A stretch of DNA of 32,676 nt from an uncultured Methanosarcinales archaeon (lineage in GTDB: Archaea; Nanobdellota; Nanobdellia; Woesearchaeales; CAXGTL01): positions 1 to 32,676 of the forward strand of contig CAZHVK010000016.1 of NCBI GenBank assembly GCA_964535955.1, given 5' to 3'. The notes under the pieces are model-generated. The model saw only the letters and a list, made by a program, of their open reading frames with translations. It searched no databases and had not been told where the DNA came from. Below are positions 1,299 through 32,676 of the stretch, one piece after another. The position numbers were made by a program, and so were the translations under genes. Position 1 is the stretch's first letter. Every line of letters begins with the position of its first letter.

Positions 1299-1361
1299 AT
1301 TTACCATTAAATAGTGTCTAATACCACAACCTTTATATATTATCACTTATTAGTAATATAT

Positions 1362-1850
1362 ATGGACAAATACTTAATAAGCTTATTTATATGTATTTTC
1401 TTACTAGGCATTGTAACTAGTTCAGCATATAGTAATTTTGTCCCAGAAGGCTTAGAAACACCATATTCAGGGTTTTCAGCAGATGAAGTGATCTCTCCTT
1501 CAGACCATATTTCAGAAGAAAATATAATTGTTCTTGATGACAGAGTAATAATCAAAGTAAAGGATCCAAAATGGGCATCTTTTGTTGATACAAATTCAAT
1601 GGATCCAATAATAGATATAAATGCAAATAGTATAGAGATAAAGCCTACTCAAAACAACCAAATTCAGCCAGGAGACATCATCTCTTACCAATATAAAGAT
1701 GTTGGCTTAGTAATACATAGAGTCATAAAAATAGGGTTTGATGAAGATGGGTGGTATGCCATTACAAAAGGAGACAATAACCTATTCAGAGATCTTGACA
1801 AAGTAAGATTTAGTCAAATAAATGGTGTTGTGATAGGAGTGATCTATTAA
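1362..1850 (+). CDS. Signal peptidase I (S26, archaeal/ER Ser-His type)-like protein
   Basis: N-terminal TM, TNSMDP (catalytic Ser), GDIISY, VIHRV, TKGDNN; ATG 1362 lies about 30 bp after TTTATATA. Confidence 0.8.
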   Translation: MDKYLISLFICIFLLGIVTSSAYSNFVPEGLETPYSGFSADEVISPSDHISEENIIVLDDRVIIKVKDPKWASFVDTNSMDPIIDINANSIEIKPTQNNQIQPGDIISYQYKDVGLVIHRVIKIGFDEDGWYAITKGDNNLFRDLDKVRFSQINGVVIGVIY

Positions 1851-1851
1851 G

Positions 1852-2280
1852 ATGGACATTGTTGAGTTAACTAAAACATTATATGAAAAAGCTCTTACAA
1901 ATTATTATAAGGAAAAGAATAATGATAAGAAAGATGTAAGAATCAATGTTGATATTGTGCTTGATTCTAAGCTTAGTTCATCTGTATTTGCAATCATTGC
2001 TTACAAACAAGGTAAAGAAGTGGCACATTCAACTGGATTTATGCAGAAATTAAATGGAAATATTTGTTATTTTAGTACTGGAAAAAATGGTATTAGTTTA
2101 ATTGCTTCTGAAATTCTTGAACAAGGTGGTTATCTTATGGTTATTCCACCAAATTATGGAAACGGGGGACACAAAAACACCTACAGGATTGATTCTAAAG
2201 GTGTTGTTAGTAAGTATGATTTGGGGAAAAAGTGTTATACAGAATTAAAAAATAAAAAAAAGATACAAAAACAGAAATAA
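1852..2280 (+). CDS. Hypothetical protein
   Basis: 142-aa ORF starting 1 bp after the previous stop. Confidence 0.65.
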   Translation: MDIVELTKTLYEKALTNYYKEKNNDKKDVRINVDIVLDSKLSSSVFAIIAYKQGKEVAHSTGFMQKLNGNICYFSTGKNGISLIASEILEQGGYLMVIPPNYGNGGHKNTYRIDSKGVVSKYDLGKKCYTELKNKKKIQKQK

Positions 2281-2712
2281 TTACTCCTCTTCTTCTTTAC
2301 CACTTTTGTCAGAAACTTGTTTCTGATCATCATCAGAGCCCTGCTCTGAGATCTCTTCACCAGGTTCTTCTGTCTGTGGCTGTTTAGCTTCTTGTTCTTT
2401 ATCAAGGTCAGAGATCACTTCATCAACTTCTCTTACTTCTCCTTTATGTTCTTCTCCTTCATGCTCACCAGCACTTGCTTCTGTGATCAATTGATCTGTT
2501 TCAACATCTTTTATTCCTTTATCAACTTCCTTCATTTGTTCTGCTTCTGTTTGTGGTTTTGGTTCTAGCTCTGTTTTTTTTTCTTCTAAATCAGACATCT
2601 TTGATGTCATTTCTTCAACACCTTTGCCTAAAGCATTGATTTCTGTTTTTTCAACTTGTTCATCTTCATCAGATTCTTTGATTTCTTTAAATTTTAGTTT
2701 TTCTTCTTCCAT
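2281..2712 (-). CDS. Highly acidic, probably disordered hypothetical protein
   Basis: 143 aa, Glu-rich; AGGTGA Shine-Dalgarno-like site upstream. Confidence 0.7.
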   Translation of the reverse strand: MEEEKLKFKEIKESDEDEQVEKTEINALGKGVEEMTSKMSDLEEKKTELEPKPQTEAEQMKEVDKGIKDVETDQLITEASAGEHEGEEHKGEVREVDEVISDLDKEQEAKQPQTEEPGEEISEQGSDDDQKQVSDKSGKEEEE

Positions 2713-2789
2713 TTATTTTCACCTGCATTATTGTTTTTTTAATAAAAATGTTTTATTTTAATTAATATATTTTCTATGGTTTATAAACT

Positions 2790-3269
2790 TTACTTGTTTG
2801 TTTTATTCTTTTTCTCTTTAGCTTTTGCATCTCTAACCATGTCTGATGAACTTCTTGTCTTTTCTCCGCCAATATTAAACACCATTCTTATGCCTAGTTC
2901 ACCACAAACAGTGTATTCAGGAACATCATCATCTTCAAAAGAACCAGCTTTTTTCCTGTCACCACCATTTGCAAAAATATCAGGATGTAATTTTCTTAAT
3001 GCATCACAAACAGACATATCTTCAGGGTTTTCAGGATGTTCTGTAAGAATTGCATCATCAACACATTTTAATGCTTTTATTATCTCTACTCTATCATCTT
3101 GTGGCATAAAACAAAAACCTTTTTTCTTCATAAGCCAATTATCATTATTAATTATAACTACCAATCTATCACCTAATGCTTTTGCTTGCTCCATTAATCT
3201 AACATGCCCAAGATGTATTGGATCAAATCCTCCGCTTACAGTAACTGTGATTTGTTTTTGTTCTTCCAT
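2790..3269 (-). CDS. Cytidylyltransferase-family (HxGH) nucleotidyltransferase, RibL/TagD-like
   Basis: SGGFDPIHLGH, GDRLVV, RVEIIKALKCVD, PDIFANGGDR, SSS motif. Confidence 0.85.
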   Translation of the reverse strand: MEEQKQITVTVSGGFDPIHLGHVRLMEQAKALGDRLVVIINNDNWLMKKKGFCFMPQDDRVEIIKALKCVDDAILTEHPENPEDMSVCDALRKLHPDIFANGGDRKKAGSFEDDDVPEYTVCGELGIRMVFNIGGEKTRSSSDMVRDAKAKEKKNKTNK

Positions 3270-3370
3270 TTTCTATTCCTCCGATATTTAGTATAAATAT
3301 TTAAACCTGTACAATAAAATACGAGAATTAGACTCTAAATATAAAGATTTCTGTTGTTTTTTGGTGATTT

Positions 3371-3769
3371 TTATTCATACCTACTCTGTAACTCTACTTC
3401 ATATTCCTGAAAAGCTTGTTTGATTATTGGTGTTATCTTGTCTTCATTATTTATTGGCAATGAAATTGTTGCATGATGTACTTGTGCCATTAATATTGGT
3501 GTTGGGCATTCAATATGTTCTAATGATACTTTATATAATACATTATCTATGGATCCTTTTATGATATAATTTGTGTTTTCTTTTCTGTGTTCACCAAACA
3601 TTTCTTTTTCAAATGTGAATGTTCCTGTATCAAACTTTGTTTCTATACTAGATTTTAGTTTATCTAGTTTGTTAGTTACTGCTCCAACGTGTAATACTTT
3701 TACATCTATTCCTTTAACTTGTTTTGTAGGTTCTTGTCTAAAAATTGTATAATTGTCTTGTTCATCCAT
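3371..3769 (-). CDS. Hypothetical protein
   Basis: 132-aa ORF with TTTAAA box about 25 bp upstream. Confidence 0.65.
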   Translation of the reverse strand: MDEQDNYTIFRQEPTKQVKGIDVKVLHVGAVTNKLDKLKSSIETKFDTGTFTFEKEMFGEHRKENTNYIIKGSIDNVLYKVSLEHIECPTPILMAQVHHATISLPINNEDKITPIIKQAFQEYEVELQSRYE

Positions 3770-3820
3770 TGTAATAATAAGAATTTAGTGTAAATTTAAA
3801 AGCTTTATTGTGATACAGTA

Positions 3821-4684
3821 TTAAAATTGGCTTGACATTGTTAAATCTTTGAAAACTTGAAGTGCTGTTTGCCCAGACCTTATCAATGTAACAACAAACT
3901 CAAACGCAACATCATGAAAATTATTCTTAGCAGGATTGATCTGTATAATATTCTTACCAATACCACCAACATTATGGTCTCTGATTGTCTGTAACCATGC
4001 TAATTCAAATGCAAATGCTTTTGCTTCTTCTTTTCTCGGTGATAGCTTGCCACCTAAAACATGCCCTATTTCATGCCCAATTGTTATCATTACTTTATCA
4101 AGATCATCTTGTTTAACAAAGATTTCATTAGGATGGTTTTGTTTATTTCTGTTTAATGCAAAACCAACAATACCCTTATTCCATTTACCGCCAAACTTTT
4201 CATGAATCTTCATCATTTCATATTCTTCACAGATCCTTATTATAATATTATCAGGAATCTTTTCACCGAGTGTTTTTTGAAAGCATTCTTCTACCATTTC
4301 TTGAACTTCTGAAGCTTTGCCAACAAACATTGTAGGAAATCTGTAAGATGATAAAAAATTACCAGGATCAAAAAAATCAGAACAAACATTATTATTTATT
4401 TTACAAGGTGAATCATCAACAACAAGTTGCTGACTATACTGGCTCACAACATGTTCAGGTTGTCTTGACATGTACAAGTTAACCTTGTCACCAAGATCAG
4501 TACCATATCCACTTACACTTATATCACTAACCTTATTAGGTGAAAAAAAAACAGAATCATAAGAACCAAAATCCATTGGAATATAACCTGAAGACCCGGC
4601 TGAATTAGAACCCATAGATGAATATCCACAAGAGCTAGAACCTCCACCACAATTCGAACCTGTTCCTGACATTGATGAATACAT
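3821..4684 (-). CDS. HExxH zinc-metallopeptidase-like protein with Ser/Gly-rich N-terminus
   Basis: TIGHEIGH followed by EEAKAFAFE (third-ligand Glu); low-complexity N-terminal ~35 aa. Confidence 0.7.
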   Translation of the reverse strand: MYSSMSGTGSNCGGGSSSCGYSSMGSNSAGSSGYIPMDFGSYDSVFFSPNKVSDISVSGYGTDLGDKVNLYMSRQPEHVVSQYSQQLVVDDSPCKINNNVCSDFFDPGNFLSSYRFPTMFVGKASEVQEMVEECFQKTLGEKIPDNIIIRICEEYEMMKIHEKFGGKWNKGIVGFALNRNKQNHPNEIFVKQDDLDKVMITIGHEIGHVLGGKLSPRKEEAKAFAFELAWLQTIRDHNVGGIGKNIIQINPAKNNFHDVAFEFVVTLIRSGQTALQVFKDLTMSSQF

Positions 4685-4926
4685 TATTGTGTAACCTCTT
4701 GAGTATCATAATCTAAATTAACAAATTGCGCATAATGTCTAAAAACACTTTTAGGCATTGTTCTTTTTTTAAATAAATCAATTGCTTTTATTGGTTTTTG
4801 ATCTTGACCTAATACAAACAAATATCCAGCACCAGAGTTAGGTGATTTTGCAAAAACCTTATTATCATATATTCTTACTTCTTTACCAATATCTAATTCT
4901 GCAGATTTATATTCATCTTTTTTCAT
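4684..4926 (-). CDS. Small hypothetical protein
   Basis: 80 aa; overlaps both neighbours (ATGA and TAATG couplings). Confidence 0.7.
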   Translation of the reverse strand: MKKDEYKSAELDIGKEVRIYDNKVFAKSPNSGAGYLFVLGQDQKPIKAIDLFKKRTMPKSVFRHYAQFVNLDYDTQEVTQ

Positions 4927-5672
4927 TTTTTTCCACCTCCAGATGATGCTGATTTTCCACCATAACTAATTCCTGGTTTACTTCCACTTTTACCAGCACC
5001 AAGATAACCACTACCTAAACCTTTTCCACCATACAATGGTCCCATCTTATTACCATACATAGATCCAATCTTACCACCATACATTCCACCTAATGCTTTA
5101 TTTCCATACATTCCAGCATGTGCTTTGTTTCCATAAAGACCTTTATTCAAACTTTTAGAACCACCATACATAGGTGCTGATGCTCTGTCACCATAATTAC
5201 CTAACTTACCCACATTATTTCCTAAACTAATATTATACACAGCTTTAATACTAACACTATTAACAGGTGCTGATGCCTTGTCTCCAGGATTACCAAAACT
5301 AATATTATACATAGCTGTTATCTTAATATTATACATAGGTGACCCTACATTACCATAATTACCTAAACCTTTACTACCTACATAAGCACCAAGTTTACCA
5401 CCTAGACCACCTTTAGAATAGCTAGTACCACCAATTTGAGCATATTTAGGAAACTCAAGATCAGATATTTTCATCTGATTTGGGCTTTGTTCAGGCACTT
5501 CAAAATACTCTGATTCTTCATATGGTTTTTCAGGTTCTGATTCATCATCTTCTTGTTTTTCTAAATACTTTTTTCTTTTTTGTGACATTTGATCTACTAA
5601 TTCATCAAGAACTCCATTATTTTGGTTTTCCATATCAATTGCAGGGTTTTTAAAGTATGTCATTTTGATCAC
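4923..5672 (-). CDS. Gly/Tyr/Lys-rich low-complexity repeat protein (start may be ATG 5663)
   Basis: Charged N-terminal ~75 aa then (M/L)YG(N/G)K repeats; GGTGA upstream of ATG 5663. Confidence 0.75.
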   Translation of the reverse strand: MIKMTYFKNPAIDMENQNNGVLDELVDQMSQKRKKYLEKQEDDESEPEKPYEESEYFEVPEQSPNQMKISDLEFPKYAQIGGTSYSKGGLGGKLGAYVGSKGLGNYGNVGSPMYNIKITAMYNISFGNPGDKASAPVNSVSIKAVYNISLGNNVGKLGNYGDRASAPMYGGSKSLNKGLYGNKAHAGMYGNKALGGMYGGKIGSMYGNKMGPLYGGKGLGSGYLGAGKSGSKPGISYGGKSASSGGGKK

Positions 5673-23131: not shown

Positions 23132-25318
23132 ATGAAAAAACAATTACCAACATGGATTGATATTGCTGTAAAAACATTGCTAGACATGCCTGAACAATTA
23201 GGTGAATTATATGAATCTGCTCAGAATATTAATTCTAAAACAGATTATGAAAATCTGGAATCAAAGATTCTTGATAATGAATTTGTTGAAGGCACTGTAT
23301 TAAGAAAACCAAAGCAAGACATTGATCCATTTGTTGCTAATCTTTGTAATTATGCAAGAATAATCAAGAAAAATAACAGAAGAAAACTATTATGGCAAAA
23401 AGCACAAGCAAAATTTGGAATCACTAATGTATATGATTTTGAACAAAAAACCAATTATCTAGGTAAAAAGAAATTAAATTCATCTACTTATTGTACTTGT
23501 GGAAGAAAATTAACCAAAGAAGGATATGAAATAACACACATTGATGATTCTTCAATTTCACAGACAATTGGTGTAAAATGTTTCCAAGGACTGTATCAAG
23601 AGTTTAAAGAAGTTCTTCAGATGGATGAATACTATGAAAATCTTGGTAAGCAAGAAATTGCTAGACAAATAAGAGAAAATTCTAAAGTATTAAGAAAAGA
23701 AAAACCAGACTTTAAAAAAGATGAAAAAAAATTACAAGAGATATTAGATGATAAAGAAAATCTTGAAAATATTCTTGATCAAGTAAAGAAAATGATTAAA
23801 GATAAAAACAAAGAACAAAAGATATCATCTGAAACAATTGCAAAATATATCTTAACATTAAGAAGCATGGATTCACCTGGAAATCTTTCTGTTCTAATGC
23901 CGGATTTTGAACCAAATGGTAATTTATTTCAATCAATGTATAAAAGAAAAGACCTAGATTCAAGATCAAGAGATATTCTATCAAGAATTGCTTCACCATA
24001 TGGCAAAGTCACTGATGCAGAGATAGTAAGATTAGCATTTATTGAAGCTTTGTACACAAGAATTCCTACAAGTATCTTTATTGAAAGGTTTAGAGACTTA
24101 TTATACTGGGAACAGAATAAAGAATTAGACGAAACTCAGGTAAAATGTTTATCATTGATCAAAGAACACTTGTTTGATGAAAAAGAACTTGATTTAGATA
24201 AATTTAAACAAGGACTTAAAAAATATAAAAAACAGCATGTAACATTTGACTGGCTTGTACAAACTCAGTTCATAATGGGAGACATTATTGAAAAAAGGAA
24301 AAAAGAAAATTTAGAATATATGAATAAAATTCAAACACAAAAAGGTCAAGTATTAAAGATAATAAAGAGTGTTACAGATTTATTAGAAAAAGAAAGCTTT
24401 GACAAATTATCAGACAAAGAAAGAGAATATTGTTCAGAACTTTTCAAAGGAAGAAAAAGAATGATCTCAACAATGCATAATAATTATTCTGCTAATTATG
24501 AAAAAAACAGATTATTCAATGTTGAATCAAAAGAATATGCTGAAAATGTTTTATCTGTATACTCTGTTGACCAAACAATAGATTTTATTGATAATGTATG
24601 TGACATAAATGCAAAAATATTGTCTAGAAGATTCATAGATAAATATGAAACAAAGTTTAACCAAAAACAAGAAAACCACCTTACTCTTTTTGGAGAACAG
24701 TACAATTTACCTAAATCCTGTAGACAAAATCTTTTTGAAGAGTTTATAAAAACACAATGTATAACTTCTTTAGATGAATTAGTCATAGGTTTCCAAAAAA
24801 TAATGGAAAAAATGGTCTATTACAAAGATAAACAAGTAATAGAAAAAGCTAAAAAAGGTGCAAAATTCACTTATTTTTCTGTTGATAAAGACAAAAAAAT
24901 TGTTAGAAGATGGAACTTATGGACAAATAGTTTAGGTAGGTTCTTTGATTTTCAGTTAGGAATGTTGAATTCTGAAAACAAGATAAGACTAAGACCACAG
25001 TATAAAAAACCACAAGACCTGCTTTGTGATAAAGAAAGTAGAGATGTGTATAAATGGTTAGAGGAGAATCCTGATAAGAGGGTACCTGTATTCAGAATAA
25101 ATGGATGGAACAAACCTGTATTAGAAAAAAATGAACTTTTAAAAACTTATATTGAAAAAGGAAAATTAGCACCTTATGTAAAACCATTCAAGCTCCATAA
25201 TTTTATTAGAATGAAGAAACAAGAGATTGATAGAAGATTACAGACTTATTATAATCGAAATATCGAGCATAATGAATCAACAGAAATAAAATTAACAATA
25301 TTTAAAAAAAAGAAATAG
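23132..25318 (+). CDS. Large hypothetical protein with a putative Zn-binding motif
   Basis: 728 aa; CTCGRKL..YEITH...IGVKC; GGGGA SD-like site upstream. Confidence 0.75.
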   Translation: MKKQLPTWIDIAVKTLLDMPEQLGELYESAQNINSKTDYENLESKILDNEFVEGTVLRKPKQDIDPFVANLCNYARIIKKNNRRKLLWQKAQAKFGITNVYDFEQKTNYLGKKKLNSSTYCTCGRKLTKEGYEITHIDDSSISQTIGVKCFQGLYQEFKEVLQMDEYYENLGKQEIARQIRENSKVLRKEKPDFKKDEKKLQEILDDKENLENILDQVKKMIKDKNKEQKISSETIAKYILTLRSMDSPGNLSVLMPDFEPNGNLFQSMYKRKDLDSRSRDILSRIASPYGKVTDAEIVRLAFIEALYTRIPTSIFIERFRDLLYWEQNKELDETQVKCLSLIKEHLFDEKELDLDKFKQGLKKYKKQHVTFDWLVQTQFIMGDIIEKRKKENLEYMNKIQTQKGQVLKIIKSVTDLLEKESFDKLSDKEREYCSELFKGRKRMISTMHNNYSANYEKNRLFNVESKEYAENVLSVYSVDQTIDFIDNVCDINAKILSRRFIDKYETKFNQKQENHLTLFGEQYNLPKSCRQNLFEEFIKTQCITSLDELVIGFQKIMEKMVYYKDKQVIEKAKKGAKFTYFSVDKDKKIVRRWNLWTNSLGRFFDFQLGMLNSENKIRLRPQYKKPQDLLCDKESRDVYKWLEENPDKRVPVFRINGWNKPVLEKNELLKTYIEKGKLAPYVKPFKLHNFIRMKKQEIDRRLQTYYNRNIEHNESTEIKLTIFKKKK

Positions 25319-27229: not shown

Positions 27230-27291
27230 AAATTATCCACCTATTTATATATAATTTTGATGTATTACTATTTAATTCTTTTGTATAAATG

Positions 27292-27401
27292 TATGTGCAT
27301 AGTGTCTGTAAGACCAGTGAGTACCTTGCAGATTGTACAACTGTCAGGGCTTTCTATTAAAAGTTATTGTACTTAGAAAGTACGAACGAACTATGCACAT
27401 A
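27292..27401 (+). repeat. Structured element, long form, copy B
   Basis: 12-bp perfect terminal IR TATGTGCATAGT/ACTATGCACATA, GTC-TGTAA-GAC, AGTGAGTA, two stems, TACGAACGA; flanked by TGTATAAAT direct repeats. Confidence 0.88.
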
Positions 27402-27428
27402 TGTATAAATAATGCCAAAACCAAAACA

Positions 27429-29975: not shown

Positions 29976-31202
29976 ATGGTTGCTACAGATTATTTTATTT
30001 TTATTTTGAAAGGTTTGATTAGACGTAAACTTAGAAGTTGGCTTACTGTAATTGGAATCTTTATCGGAATTGCAGCAGTTGTTTCTTTGATTGGTTTAGG
30101 AGAAGGTTTAAGAGAATCTATTAATGCTCAGTTTGGATTTGTAGGAGCAGATGTTATGGTTGTTACTGCAAGTGGTGGACTTGGTCCTCCTGGTACAGGT
30201 GTTGTTGATCCATTAACAGAAAAAGAAATCAAAGCAATAAAGACTATTCCTGGTGTTGAAGGAGTTACAGGAAGAATAATTGAATCTGGAAAAATTGTTT
30301 ATAATAATAAAGCTGGTTTTGGTTTTGCTGCCAGCATGCCTAGTGGTGAAGGCAGAGAATTAGTACAAGATGTTCTTAACATGAAAGCTATAAAAGGCAG
30401 ATTTCTTAAAGATGGTGATTCAGGTGTTGTTTTCTTAGGATATGCATTTTATGAAGATGATGAAGCTTTTGGTAAAATAATTGATGTCAGCTCAAAAATC
30501 AAAATATTAGATAAAGAATTCAAAGTTATAGGAATTCAAGAAAAAAAAGGAAACTTCCAATTTGATGGAGCAGTATTTATGAATGAAGATGATTTAAGAG
30601 ATTTAGTTGATAGGCAAGGTGATGATTATGACTTAGTTCCTGTAAAATTCAATACAAATCTTGATGTTAGCAAGATACAAGCAGACATTGAAAAAAAATT
30701 AAGAAAAGTAAGAGATGTTGATATAGGTGAAGAAGACTTTTCAGTACAAACACCTGCTTCTGTTATTGAAAATGTAAATAATACATTACTTGGTGTCCAA
30801 ATATTTATTTATATAATTGCAAGCATATCATTATTAGTAGGAGGAATTGGAATAATGAACACTATGTATACATCTGTTGTTGAAAGAACAAAAGAGATTG
30901 GTATAATGAAATCAATAGGTGCAAAGAATGGGACAATATTTACATTATTTTTTGTAGAATCTGGTTTACTTGGATCTGTTGGAGGCATTGTTGGTGCAAT
31001 TATGGGTTATATTGGTGCAACATTATTAGCTTATATTGGAAGCATTGCACTTGGATCTGATCTTATAAGTGCTCATATATCTTGGCAATTATTTATTGGT
31101 GCAATATTTTTTTCATTTGTTGTTGGTTCATTTTTTGGAACAATGCCTGCTTATAAAGCATCTAAACTTCACCCAGTGGATGCTTTGAGGTACGCGAAGT
31201 GA
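29976..31202 (+). CDS. ABC transporter permease (MacB/FtsX family)
   Basis: RKLRSWLTVIGIFIG, GGIGIMNTMYTSVVERTKEIGIMKSIGA, PAYKASKLHPVDALRY. Confidence 0.95.
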   Translation: MVATDYFIFILKGLIRRKLRSWLTVIGIFIGIAAVVSLIGLGEGLRESINAQFGFVGADVMVVTASGGLGPPGTGVVDPLTEKEIKAIKTIPGVEGVTGRIIESGKIVYNNKAGFGFAASMPSGEGRELVQDVLNMKAIKGRFLKDGDSGVVFLGYAFYEDDEAFGKIIDVSSKIKILDKEFKVIGIQEKKGNFQFDGAVFMNEDDLRDLVDRQGDDYDLVPVKFNTNLDVSKIQADIEKKLRKVRDVDIGEEDFSVQTPASVIENVNNTLLGVQIFIYIIASISLLVGGIGIMNTMYTSVVERTKEIGIMKSIGAKNGTIFTLFFVESGLLGSVGGIVGAIMGYIGATLLAYIGSIALGSDLISAHISWQLFIGAIFFSFVVGSFFGTMPAYKASKLHPVDALRYAK

Positions 31203-31278
31203 TATTGATAGTCTCGTACCTTAAAGCTACGAACGAAATGCAATGTAGTGAGTATACTTTGAGGTACGCAAAGTGATA
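31182..31278 (+). repeat. Structured element, short target-matched form, copy D
   Basis: Gene end (31182-204), inverted copy CGTACCTTAAAGC (31215-27), core TACGAACGA-N10-AGTGAGTA (31228-54), direct copy 21/22 identical (31257-78). Confidence 0.88.
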
Positions 31279-31280
31279 GA

Positions 31281-31385
31281 GTGCATGGTTCGTTCGTACT
31301 TTCCATTCTTAGCAAGAAGCACATGGAAAGGCCTGATAGTTTTACAACCTGTTAGGTACTCACTGGTCTTACAGACACCATGCAC
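31281..31385 (-). repeat. Structured element, long form, copy C (inverted relative to B)
   Basis: Reverse complement aligns to copy B, with compensatory changes in the terminal stem and the CTTTC stem. Confidence 0.88.
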
Positions 31386-31403
31386 ATAATATAATACAAT
31401 AAA

Positions 31404-32624
31404 ATGATATTAGACATATTAATATATTCAATAAAGAATTTATTTAACAGAAGACTTAGAAGTTTTCTTAGTATATTGTCTATTTTAATAGGTGTAACTG
31501 CAATCTATGCATTAATCAGTTTTGGTCAAGGAATAAACTCTTATATGGATGGATTTGCACAAGAGATGGGAACAGATAAAGTATTTTTAATGCCTGGTGG
31601 AGGTATTACAAATGCTCCAGGAACAAGTAATATTTTGTTTTCTGAAGATGACTTGGATTTTATTAGAAAGATAAAAGGAGTTGATGAAGCAAGCGGAATG
31701 ATGATCACAACAGGAAAAGTAAAGTACAAAGATTATAAAGAAAAATATCCTTTTATAATGGGAATGTCTACTGAGGTAAAAGAAAAAAAATTAATAGAGG
31801 AAATGTTTGCTGGGATAGAGGTTATACAAGGAAGATCTTTAAAAAAAGGAGATACATTAAAAGCAACTGCAGGATATTCTTATATTATTCAAGATAGAAT
31901 GTTTAAAAAAAAAATTTCTATAGGAGATAAAATCGAAATAAATGATGTAACTGTAGAAATAGTAGGATTTTATGAAGAAGTTGGAAACCCAACAGATGAT
32001 TCAAATGTTTATTTATCCAAAGAAGGATTCAAACAGATATTTGATATTGAAGATTATGAATATATTTATGTAAGGACTGTTTTTGATCAGAATCCTACAG
32101 ATGTAGCTGAAAAAATAAAAGAAAAATTCAGAAAACATAGAAATCAAAAAGAAGGTGAAGAAGATTTCACAGTACAGACTTTTGAAGATATGATGGCAAT
32201 ATTTTCTAATATAATTCTTGTTCTAAATGGAGTCTTAGTAATAATAGCTCTGATCTCAGTAGTTGTAGCAGCTATTAACATAACAAATACTATGTATACT
32301 TCAATTTTAGAAAGAACGCAAGAGATTGGTGTGATGAAAGCAATTGGTGCTAAAAATAAATACATTTTGATTATATTTGTTATAGAATCAGGACTTCTTG
32401 GACTTTTAGGAGGTTTGGTAGGCATTGGTCTTGGCTATGCAATTGCTAAATTAGGAGGTATGATAGCTGCAATGAATGGTCTTTCAATGCTAAGACCAGG
32501 ATTTCCTTGGTGGTTGACTGTTGGTTGTTTATTGTTTGCATTTGGTGTTGGTGCTGGAGCAGGTTATTTTCCAGCTAGGCAAGCTAGTAAGATGCAAGCA
32601 ACAGATGCTTTGAGATGGGAATGA
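31404..32624 (+). CDS. Second ABC transporter permease (MacB/FtsX family)
   Basis: RRLRSFLSILSILIG, NTMYTSILERTQEIGVMKAIGA, PARQASKM...DALRWE. Confidence 0.95.
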   Translation: MILDILIYSIKNLFNRRLRSFLSILSILIGVTAIYALISFGQGINSYMDGFAQEMGTDKVFLMPGGGITNAPGTSNILFSEDDLDFIRKIKGVDEASGMMITTGKVKYKDYKEKYPFIMGMSTEVKEKKLIEEMFAGIEVIQGRSLKKGDTLKATAGYSYIIQDRMFKKKISIGDKIEINDVTVEIVGFYEEVGNPTDDSNVYLSKEGFKQIFDIEDYEYIYVRTVFDQNPTDVAEKIKEKFRKHRNQKEGEEDFTVQTFEDMMAIFSNIILVLNGVLVIIALISVVVAAINITNTMYTSILERTQEIGVMKAIGAKNKYILIIFVIESGLLGLLGGLVGIGLGYAIAKLGGMIAAMNGLSMLRPGFPWWLTVGCLLFAFGVGAGAGYFPARQASKMQATDALRWE

Positions 32625-32676
32625 AACGAGCATCTTAAAGCTACGAACGAAACAAAGTGTAGTGAGTATGCTTTGA
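32605..32676 (+). repeat. Structured element, short target-matched form, copy E (cut by the window end)
   Basis: Gene end GCTTTGAGATG (32607-17), inverted copy CATCTTAAAGC (32631-41), core TACGAACGA-N10-AGTGAGTA (32642-68), direct copy ATGCTTTGA (32668-76). Confidence 0.85.

Follow-up and report, generated by a model that had tools for sequence, protein, structure and literature searches.

In this study, we report that two diverged permease genes in a 32,676-nt stretch of archaeal DNA (contig CAZHVK010000016.1; the whole stretch is called the window below) are each followed by a short structured element that combines a fixed core with copies of the end of its own gene. We tentatively read this element as a small palindromic DNA repeat, related to a co-resident miniature inverted-repeat transposable element (MITE), whose arms would be made from the adjacent DNA, and not as a device specific to the permease operon; this explanation is a serious possibility, short of a probable one. 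The arms vary by locus and each copies the neighbouring gene terminus, that of permease 1, that of permease 2 and, in a bacterial locus (L001), that of tRNA-Gln(ctg).

Behind both permeases the same order is found on the forward strand: the gene end (13 and 11 nt, respectively), a loop with the stop codon (20 and 13 nt), an inverted arm, the core and a direct copy of the gene end. This arm order, the fixed core, the match of the arms to the cognate gene and the G:T wobble shared by both copies had been described in an earlier note on this DNA, and the sequence confirms all of them (31228-55 and 32642-69). Permease 1 (29976..31202; MacB_PCD and FtsX domains), delimited from Pfam and from orthologue C-termini, ends with DALRYAK-TGA. 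Its native last codons, GCTTTGAGGTACG (31182..31194), form arm X of copy 1. A 20-nt hairpin loop (31195..31214) follows, which holds the stop TGA at 31200-02 and further in-frame TGA and TAG codons, and then arm X', CGTACCTTAAAGC (31215..31227), which repeats the gene end in inverted orientation save for one T-for-C change and faces it in 12 Watson-Crick pairs and one G:T. Core 1 (31228..31255), an imperfect palindrome, is made of half A TACGAACGAAA, the loop TGCAA and half B TGTAGTGAGTA(T). Finally, the direct copy of the permease 1 end (31254..31278), whose first 13 nt constitute arm X2, reads T-L-R-Y-A-K-stop. As had been claimed, 31257-78 agrees with 31183-204 at 21/22 positions and still codes for L-R-Y-A-K-stop; when the comparison is extended to 31254-78 and 31180-204, identity is 23/25 (92%), and at both differences the gene has G and the downstream copy A. 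The hexamer TGATAG occurs three times within 140 nt around this site, in the loop after the permease 1 stop (31206-11), at the end of the direct copy (31274-79) and further downstream (31336-41, in the repeat copy called E31 below), which hints at further hidden repetition.

Permease 2 (31404..32624, FtsX and MacB_PCD domains by Pfam) ends with DALRWE-TGA and is followed by copy 2. Its native last codons, GCTTTGAGATG (32607..32617), form arm X, the 13-nt loop (32618..32630) carries the stop TGA at 32622-24, and arm X', CATCTTAAAGC (32631..32641), has its G:T at the same position as in copy 1. Core 2 (32642..32669) repeats halves A and B of core 1 around the loop CAAAG. The direct copy of the permease 2 end then begins with GCTTTGA (32670..32676), and the window ends there, 7 nt past the second core; the start of the window does not continue the element.

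The core TACGAACGAAA-N5-TGTAGTGAGTAT is thus present at two sites in the window, with no mismatch in 23 fixed bases and 0.00 sites expected (100 shuffles). The stretch common to both element copies is 43 nt long and 88% identical; immediately upstream of it, the final 78 coding bases are identical at 46/78 positions (59%), and the two permease proteins share 35% identity. The loops are nearly wholly different among the element copies. When the 42 ORFs were ranked by a hairpin starting in the gene end, permease 1 came first and permease 2 third, the copy 1 hairpin (31182-94 with 31215-27) reaching -10.4 kcal/mol when folded as DNA (z -4.75).

The core is itself a hairpin, a point that the earlier note had overlooked. 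Read from the sequence, it is an imperfect palindrome of 27-28 nt in an 11-5-11 layout, with seven of its 11 positions symmetric Watson-Crick pairs, four purine-purine pairs, and the N5, which differs between copies, as loop. Half A faces half B in the pairs U-A, A-U, C-G, G.A, A.G, A-U, C-G, G.A, A-U, A.G and A-U, and the arms prolong this stem outwards. Nearest-neighbour folding reproduces the core pairing only partly. A sequence of the type CGAA/UGAG in the core resembles the tandem G.A part of the hammerhead ribozyme; that candidate was rejected on reading the sequence, CUGANGA and a permissible cleavage site being absent.

We then consider the arm that lies within the gene. It is native coding sequence: among the 120 closest relatives listed for permease 1, the commonest C-termini are VDALRYSK (22) and VDALRYAK (18), and a D/E-A/S-x-R/S motif stands near the C-terminus in all 40 of the listed ending types. 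That the element would insert specifically at the DALR codons, as had been suggested, is a proposal only. A protein identical to permease 1 is encoded on 6 contigs, of which the longest measures 158 kb, and there are relatives with 96% and 88% identity. One 386-aa relative of permease 1 (P0120) is 100% identical over its final 158 residues and only about half identical before them, and is thus either a chimeric assembly or a recombinant. It ends with ...RYAKWYW, two TGA codons after the gene having been read as Trp by some pipeline.

The halves of the core are also found in a second repeat of the window, which we call E and which had likewise escaped the earlier note, as had the continuation of the copy 1 structure into it. 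The first copy, E27 (27292..27401, forward strand), is a 110-bp structured repeat with half B at 27316-23 and half A at 27381-90. Its terminal inverted repeats, TATGTGCATAGT and ACTATGCACATA, are perfect over 12 bp, and it is bordered on the left by TGTATAAAT(G) (27282..27291) and on the right by TGTATAAAT(A) (27402..27411), a 9-bp flanking direct repeat as is seen after transposition. The second, E31 (31279..31389, reverse strand), starts directly after the direct copy of the permease 1 end, has the complements of half A (31289-98) and half B (31357-64) on the forward strand, and is without a flanking duplication. Terminal inverted repeats TATGTGCATRGT/ACYATGCACATA are present in both. The half A 10-mer TACGAACGAA has four sites in the window against 0.21 expected, the half B 8-mer AGTGAGTA also has four, and all eight belong either to one of the cores or to one of the E copies. 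The order of the halves is swapped in E, B...A, where they form its inner junction.

E27 and E31 are identical at 85/110 positions; outside one hairpin loop the figure is 80/92 and inside it 5/18, and compensatory pairs are found once in the closing stem and once in the inner hairpin. Because of the terminal inverted repeats, the flanking repeat of E27, the clustering of differences in a loop and the compensatory pairs, E is best described as a structured, transposon-like repeat. Through its halves, the core is tied to this repeat, which bears hallmarks of a transposon. With nhmmer, E-values below 0.6 were obtained in the window and L001 for the two E copies only; a weak match at L001 8541-8608 was set aside, as it falls inside an ORF. 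A search for E in other genomes by way of the 60-aa translation of E31 gave no candidate. E27 itself lies in the spacer between two divergent genes, one dCTP deaminase-like and one MarR-like, with some 120 nt between it and the operon start downstream, and may influence the promoter.

The operon runs from the MarR-like gene through an ABC ATPase, a CARDB-domain protein and permease 1 to permease 2, with the elements at its end. Its permease 1-2 spacer, made up of the core unit and E31, is unusually long at 201 nt, the remaining junctions of the operon measuring -4, 29 and 18 nt, and this fits inserted material.

Outside the window, a scan of 185,579 genomes with the 22-base core pattern at six spacings returned one locus, L001, with all 22 fixed bases and the N5 spacing. 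About 0.4 chance matches would be expected in such a collection by our own arithmetic. We nevertheless judge that the match is not a chance one, because the spacing is again 5, the loop shares 3/5 bases with copy 2 and an 11-nt inverted repeat flanks the core immediately. This repeat is 10/11 complementary and folds as DNA with -13.6 kcal/mol (z -4.55). The first 11 nt of a tRNA-Gln(ctg) gene, which ARAGORN and Rfam both recognise, make up one of its arms. Scanning for arms that match neighbours at unrelated genes had been put forward as a check, and here it was positive once. The locus is bacterial (MnmA, UppP and TruA; G+C about 0.50). Its label is Prevotella sp.; among proteins that carry a name, its UppP is closest to those from metagenome-assembled genomes of Clostridia (72-77% identity), and the bin label may be wrong.

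At L001 4903-5040, two 44-nt units form a long leader of tRNA-Gln(ctg), each a hairpin in which a TGAC loop joins a direct copy of the tRNA 5' end to an inverted one. The full core is gene-proximal, and the two distal junctions look like a shortened, degenerate core, with an 8/11 match to half B in each. Read on the strand that runs from half A to half B, both genomes show the same periodic order of Arm, small loop, Arm', core and Arm, with the gene contributing Arm in the window and Arm' in L001. A search for further diverged cores in the window and L001 found none: the relaxed scan returned the three known sites and two rows at chance level (0-10 hits in shuffles). Two features of the surroundings may be recorded. 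A paralogous gene, tRNA-Gln(ttg), lies 290 nt away, and the region upstream of it is plain and looks like a promoter (TTTACA-17-TATAAT). Moreover, a 201-aa ORF without Pfam match (L001 5089-5694, reverse strand) shares 12 nt with the 3' end of tRNA-Gln(ctg) and lies beside an Xre-type HTH gene in a lower-GC stretch; this may be the edge of an integrated element.

Altogether, 22 identical bases in an archaeon and a bacterium, the lack of covariation, the unrelated loops and host genes that have diverged to 35% identity point to spreading DNA or to recognition by a sequence-specific protein, and not to an RNA fold kept since the duplication of the permeases. We can propose the following course of events. 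The constant hairpin would belong as a module to a mobile family, and the enzyme that recognises it would be encoded elsewhere. At or after the arrival of the core, the DNA adjoining the hairpin would be copied to its far side in inverted and in direct orientation, giving Arm, small loop, Arm', core and Arm. The simplest route to this order would be strand switching, that is fold-back synthesis, at the hairpin during replication or repair. According to PMC8794818, template switching in replication produces reverse-complement copies of adjacent sequence and can create or repair a stem in one event. As the arm is a copy, the host gene would retain its own end and stop codon. In the mRNA, the outcome would be a pair of competing 3' hairpins, probably as a by-product.

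Several observations weigh against this proposal. It rests on three cores in two genomes, and neither an empty site nor a polymorphism nor an enzyme was found; in particular, transposase, reverse transcriptase and integrase domains are absent from the 48 window ORFs scanned, and so is the Y1 transposase domain. Both window copies carry the identical T-for-C mismatch in CTTAAAGC, which a partly fixed or inherited left arm fits better than two independent copying events do, and the truly gene-specific part of the arms is only the outer 5 nt and 3 nt. A plain template switch accounts for the inverted arm and leaves three features unexplained, namely the 10-nt filler, the position of the core between the arms, and the direct repeat, whose 25 nt far exceed the 9-bp flanking repeat of E27. 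To this are added the missing duplication around E31, the position of all three cores downstream of an ORF on the sense strand, the small difference of 2.2 kcal/mol between the two RNA folds, and the two compensatory pairs and loop-clustered differences of E27 and E31, which are also the look of a functional RNA. Among the three options that the earlier note had offered, a tiny non-autonomous element with target-built arms still fits best, given the tRNA-Gln arms of L001 and the halves shared with E; it is the wholly target-built nature of the left arm that the common CTTAAAGC mismatch calls into question.

The second of these options, a cis-acting switch in the 3' region of the mRNA, is unlikely, though it remains a real contender. 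In such a switch, the middle arm would have two partners, the coding end and, whenever a ribosome terminating there blocks it, the downstream copy. The choice between them would alter the stability or processing of the mRNA or the expression of the gene that follows, and the conserved helix, rich in purines, would serve as a protein-binding or catalytic motif. Physically, this could work. The two mutually exclusive folds that had been predicted do exist and are nearly equal (-25.9 vs -23.7 kcal/mol), the second one reaches -18.4 kcal/mol with the gene end and loop blocked, and the 241-nt region folds strongly (-73.2 kcal/mol, z -4.34, none of 200 shuffles better). The sense-strand position of the three cores and the compensatory pairs and variable loop of the related E are in its favour as well. 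However, in L001 the stop of the upstream ORF lies about 60 nt before the core and the arm is antisense to the tRNA, so that coupling to translation is impossible there, and the tRNA-Gln(ctg) transcript itself bears the complement of the core, with pyrimidine mismatches. The seven Watson-Crick positions of the core show no covariation, and the need for a 25-nt copy that includes the stop codon would be left unexplained. No known family or terminator signal came to its support either. Rfam 15 gave no window match at the gathering score and, for the core, E and the L001 array, only chance-level hits in relaxed mode, the two tRNAs of L001 excepted. A terminator scan of 31100-32676 picked up two sites, both within permease 2, and nothing at the elements; neither hairpin is followed by a T run, which sets them apart from an intrinsic terminator with its G+C-rich hairpin and T tract.

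A bolder form of the mobile-repeat proposal, which we consider distinctly unlikely, is that we are dealing with a new minimal mobile element of bacteria and archaea. It would be a sequence-specific hairpin of about 28 nt that spreads as a folded single strand, or dumbbell, with a stem written from the target; it could take up residence at any gene terminus and leave the gene intact, it would form Arm-loop-Arm'-core arrays by growth at their gene-proximal end, and E would be a larger member or a carrier of the recognition module.

A related idea, which we rate as rather improbable, takes the core as a recombination site and the unit as an integrated tiny folded dumbbell circle of single-stranded DNA, whose stem copies the target duplex. 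A single exchange of strands between this stem and the target, with replication thereafter, would give the target, the rest of the circle, the inverted arm, the core and the target again, which is the order X, loop, X', core, X that is seen. The tandem units of L001 would fit repeated integration or unequal exchange, and in layout the core resembles a pair of inverted half sites of 11 nt each, symmetric at 7/11 positions, that enclose a short variable spacer. CTX phage and integron cassettes are known examples of attachment sites made of a folded single strand. Nonetheless, no recombinase gene is present in the window, and the spacer is 5 nt long and differs between copies, when tyrosine recombinases usually require 6-8 nt and identical spacers in both partners. 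The idea also gives no account of how arms would come to match a new target, and we know of no circle of 44-74 nt.

It is very improbable that the element was placed behind a single ancestral permease, was duplicated with the gene and was kept paired by compensatory change or intra-strand conversion. This third option is favoured by the same position relative to the DALR codons in both paralogues and by the G:T mismatch common to both arms, and template switching is able to repair stems (PMC8794818). It is weakened by a core whose 22 bases are identical without covariation while the loops are unrelated, despite 35% protein identity and 59% identity of the adjacent coding DNA, by the same core beside an unrelated gene in another domain of life, and by halves held in common with a repeat that bears a flanking duplication.

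It is hardly credible that the structure is an artefact of assembly or library preparation, for instance a fold-back chimera or an adapter. The window does stop 7 nt past the second core, both sources are metagenome assemblies, and the same 22 bases occur in two unrelated organisms. But copy 1 is internal to the contig and has coherent flanks, the arms are short and imperfect, unlike those of fold-back chimeras, and the halves are also found in E27, at an ordinary intergenic site with its own flanking repeat. Moreover, P0120, from another assembly, reads identically for 12 bases past the permease 1 stop (TGA given as W), and the string matches listed from the literature name no adapter; to our knowledge, sequencing adapters offer no convincing match. 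Finally, translational recoding by stop read-through, frameshift or bypass into the core can practically be dismissed: the copy 2 core lies in frame behind TGA (…DALRWE*NEHLKATNETKCSEYAL) and the copy 1 peptide frame (…LKATNEMQCSEYTLRYAK*) is open in the +2 frame, but the frames differ between copies (period 74 vs 63 nt), three stops fall within 12 nt in frame 0 of copy 1, 17/42 ORFs end in TGA, and the extension would merely repeat the native end. The same count of TGA stops led us to reject TGA as a sense codon. A group I or archaeal bulge-helix-bulge intron was also rejected, the wobble G being on the exon side, 3-nt bulges being absent and conserved codons being spliced out.

Returning to the palindromic repeat with locally copied arms, we compared it with described systems. 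From its structure, the element would be a small palindromic prokaryotic repeat that belongs to neither the MITEs nor the repetitive extragenic palindromes (REPs) and REPINs, because the stems of these are constant and the outer stem here is local. Like MITEs, the repeats described here are short, non-coding, hairpin-forming and repeated, and in E27 the terminal inverted repeats (12 bp) are accompanied by a flanking direct repeat of 9 bp. Unlike them, the inverted arms of the core elements differ between permease 1, permease 2 and L001, each copying the neighbouring gene; constant terminal inverted repeats are found in both E copies and not in the core elements. Flanking repeats are TGTATAAAT at E27, absent at E31 and 25 nt including the gene end at core copy 1, and no domain of a parent transposase was detected in the window ORFs. 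As for REPs, PMC3733652 describes them from bacteria as imperfect palindromes of 20-40 bp, mostly located just downstream of coding regions and often clustered in alternating orientation, with a constant stem and an unpaired GTAG or CGTC tag at one end. Our element shares with REPs and REPINs, which are present in high copy number and are mobilised by REP-associated tyrosine transposases (RAYTs), the 20-40-bp imperfect palindrome and the location downstream of genes. It differs in that GTAG (31245-48 and 32659-62) lies within the paired half B, the outer stem being local and the inner stem constant, in that no Y1 transposase is found in the window, and in that the window is archaeal, REPs being described there from bacteria.

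Template-switch, or quasipalindrome, mutations as described in PMC8794818 agree with the inverted arms, which match the adjacent terminus at 12/13 positions for permease 1, 10/11 for permease 2 and 10/11 for L001. They are, however, a process and not an element, and they neither introduce a 28-nt core that is constant nor account for one architecture that recurs at three loci.

Other systems resemble the elements in single traits. In the attP site of CTX phage and the attC site of integrons, a hairpin stem imitates or rebuilds a duplex recombination site with defined consensus boxes, bound by XerCD and IntI, respectively. The likeness lies in insertion at or next to gene ends and in the order of the product, but there are no such boxes or recombinases here, and the units measure 44-74 nt. 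The IS110 and IS1111 elements have a bridge or seek RNA of 100-200 nt whose guides, fixed before insertion, lie beside the gene of a DEDD transposase; IS110 lacks terminal repeats and flanking duplication. They too have short stretches identical and complementary to the target, but no DEDD transposase gene is found here and E has both terminal repeats and a flanking duplication. A diversity-generating retroelement has a nearby reverse transcriptase and a variable repeat at a gene 3' end whose template repeat differs at adenines. Here there is no reverse transcriptase domain and the repeat is only 25 nt long; its two G/A differences prove nothing. Dif-like sites of tyrosine recombinases consist of two inverted arms of about 11 bp, a 6-8-bp spacer and a cognate recombinase; the 11-5-11 core with its 7/11 symmetric positions is similar in layout, but its 5-nt spacer varies and the window has no integrase domain. 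Similarity searches against plasmid (6 records) and phage (68 records) sequences yielded merely chance matches of 24-38 nt with E-values of 2 or more. A literature search with sequence strings gave nothing relevant among the papers listed, and topic searches only general work on template switching and REPs.

With respect to its setting, the window looks archaeal by gene content and Woesearchaeota-like. It has a G+C content of 30% and encodes TYW3, Trm1 and a class II aminoacyl-tRNA synthetase (tRNA-synt_2b and HGTP_anticodon domains by Pfam), and the named closest relatives of permease 1, among those listed, are Candidatus Woesearchaeota. No tRNA or tmRNA was found in the window. Elsewhere in it, two adjacent ORFs of 120 and 115 aa with a 4-nt overlap and one EamA domain each (592-1298) could be a split or a naturally two-part transporter. 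A 728-aa ORF (23132-25318) and several further ORFs of 130-290 aa (1314-5672) have no Pfam match.

If the arms are truly written from the target, the element would be a repeat that adapts to every insertion site and leaves the host gene intact; we know of no such behaviour for prokaryotic MITEs or REPs. Furthermore, the occurrence of one and the same 22-base module in an archaeon and in a bacterium would suggest that a very small element has spread horizontally or that a sequence-specific enzyme is shared. For annotation, the proposed repeat accounts for the unusually long spacer in a conserved ABC-transporter operon. It also calls for caution, as short duplicated gene ends past stop codons can be by-products of repeats and not regulatory devices.

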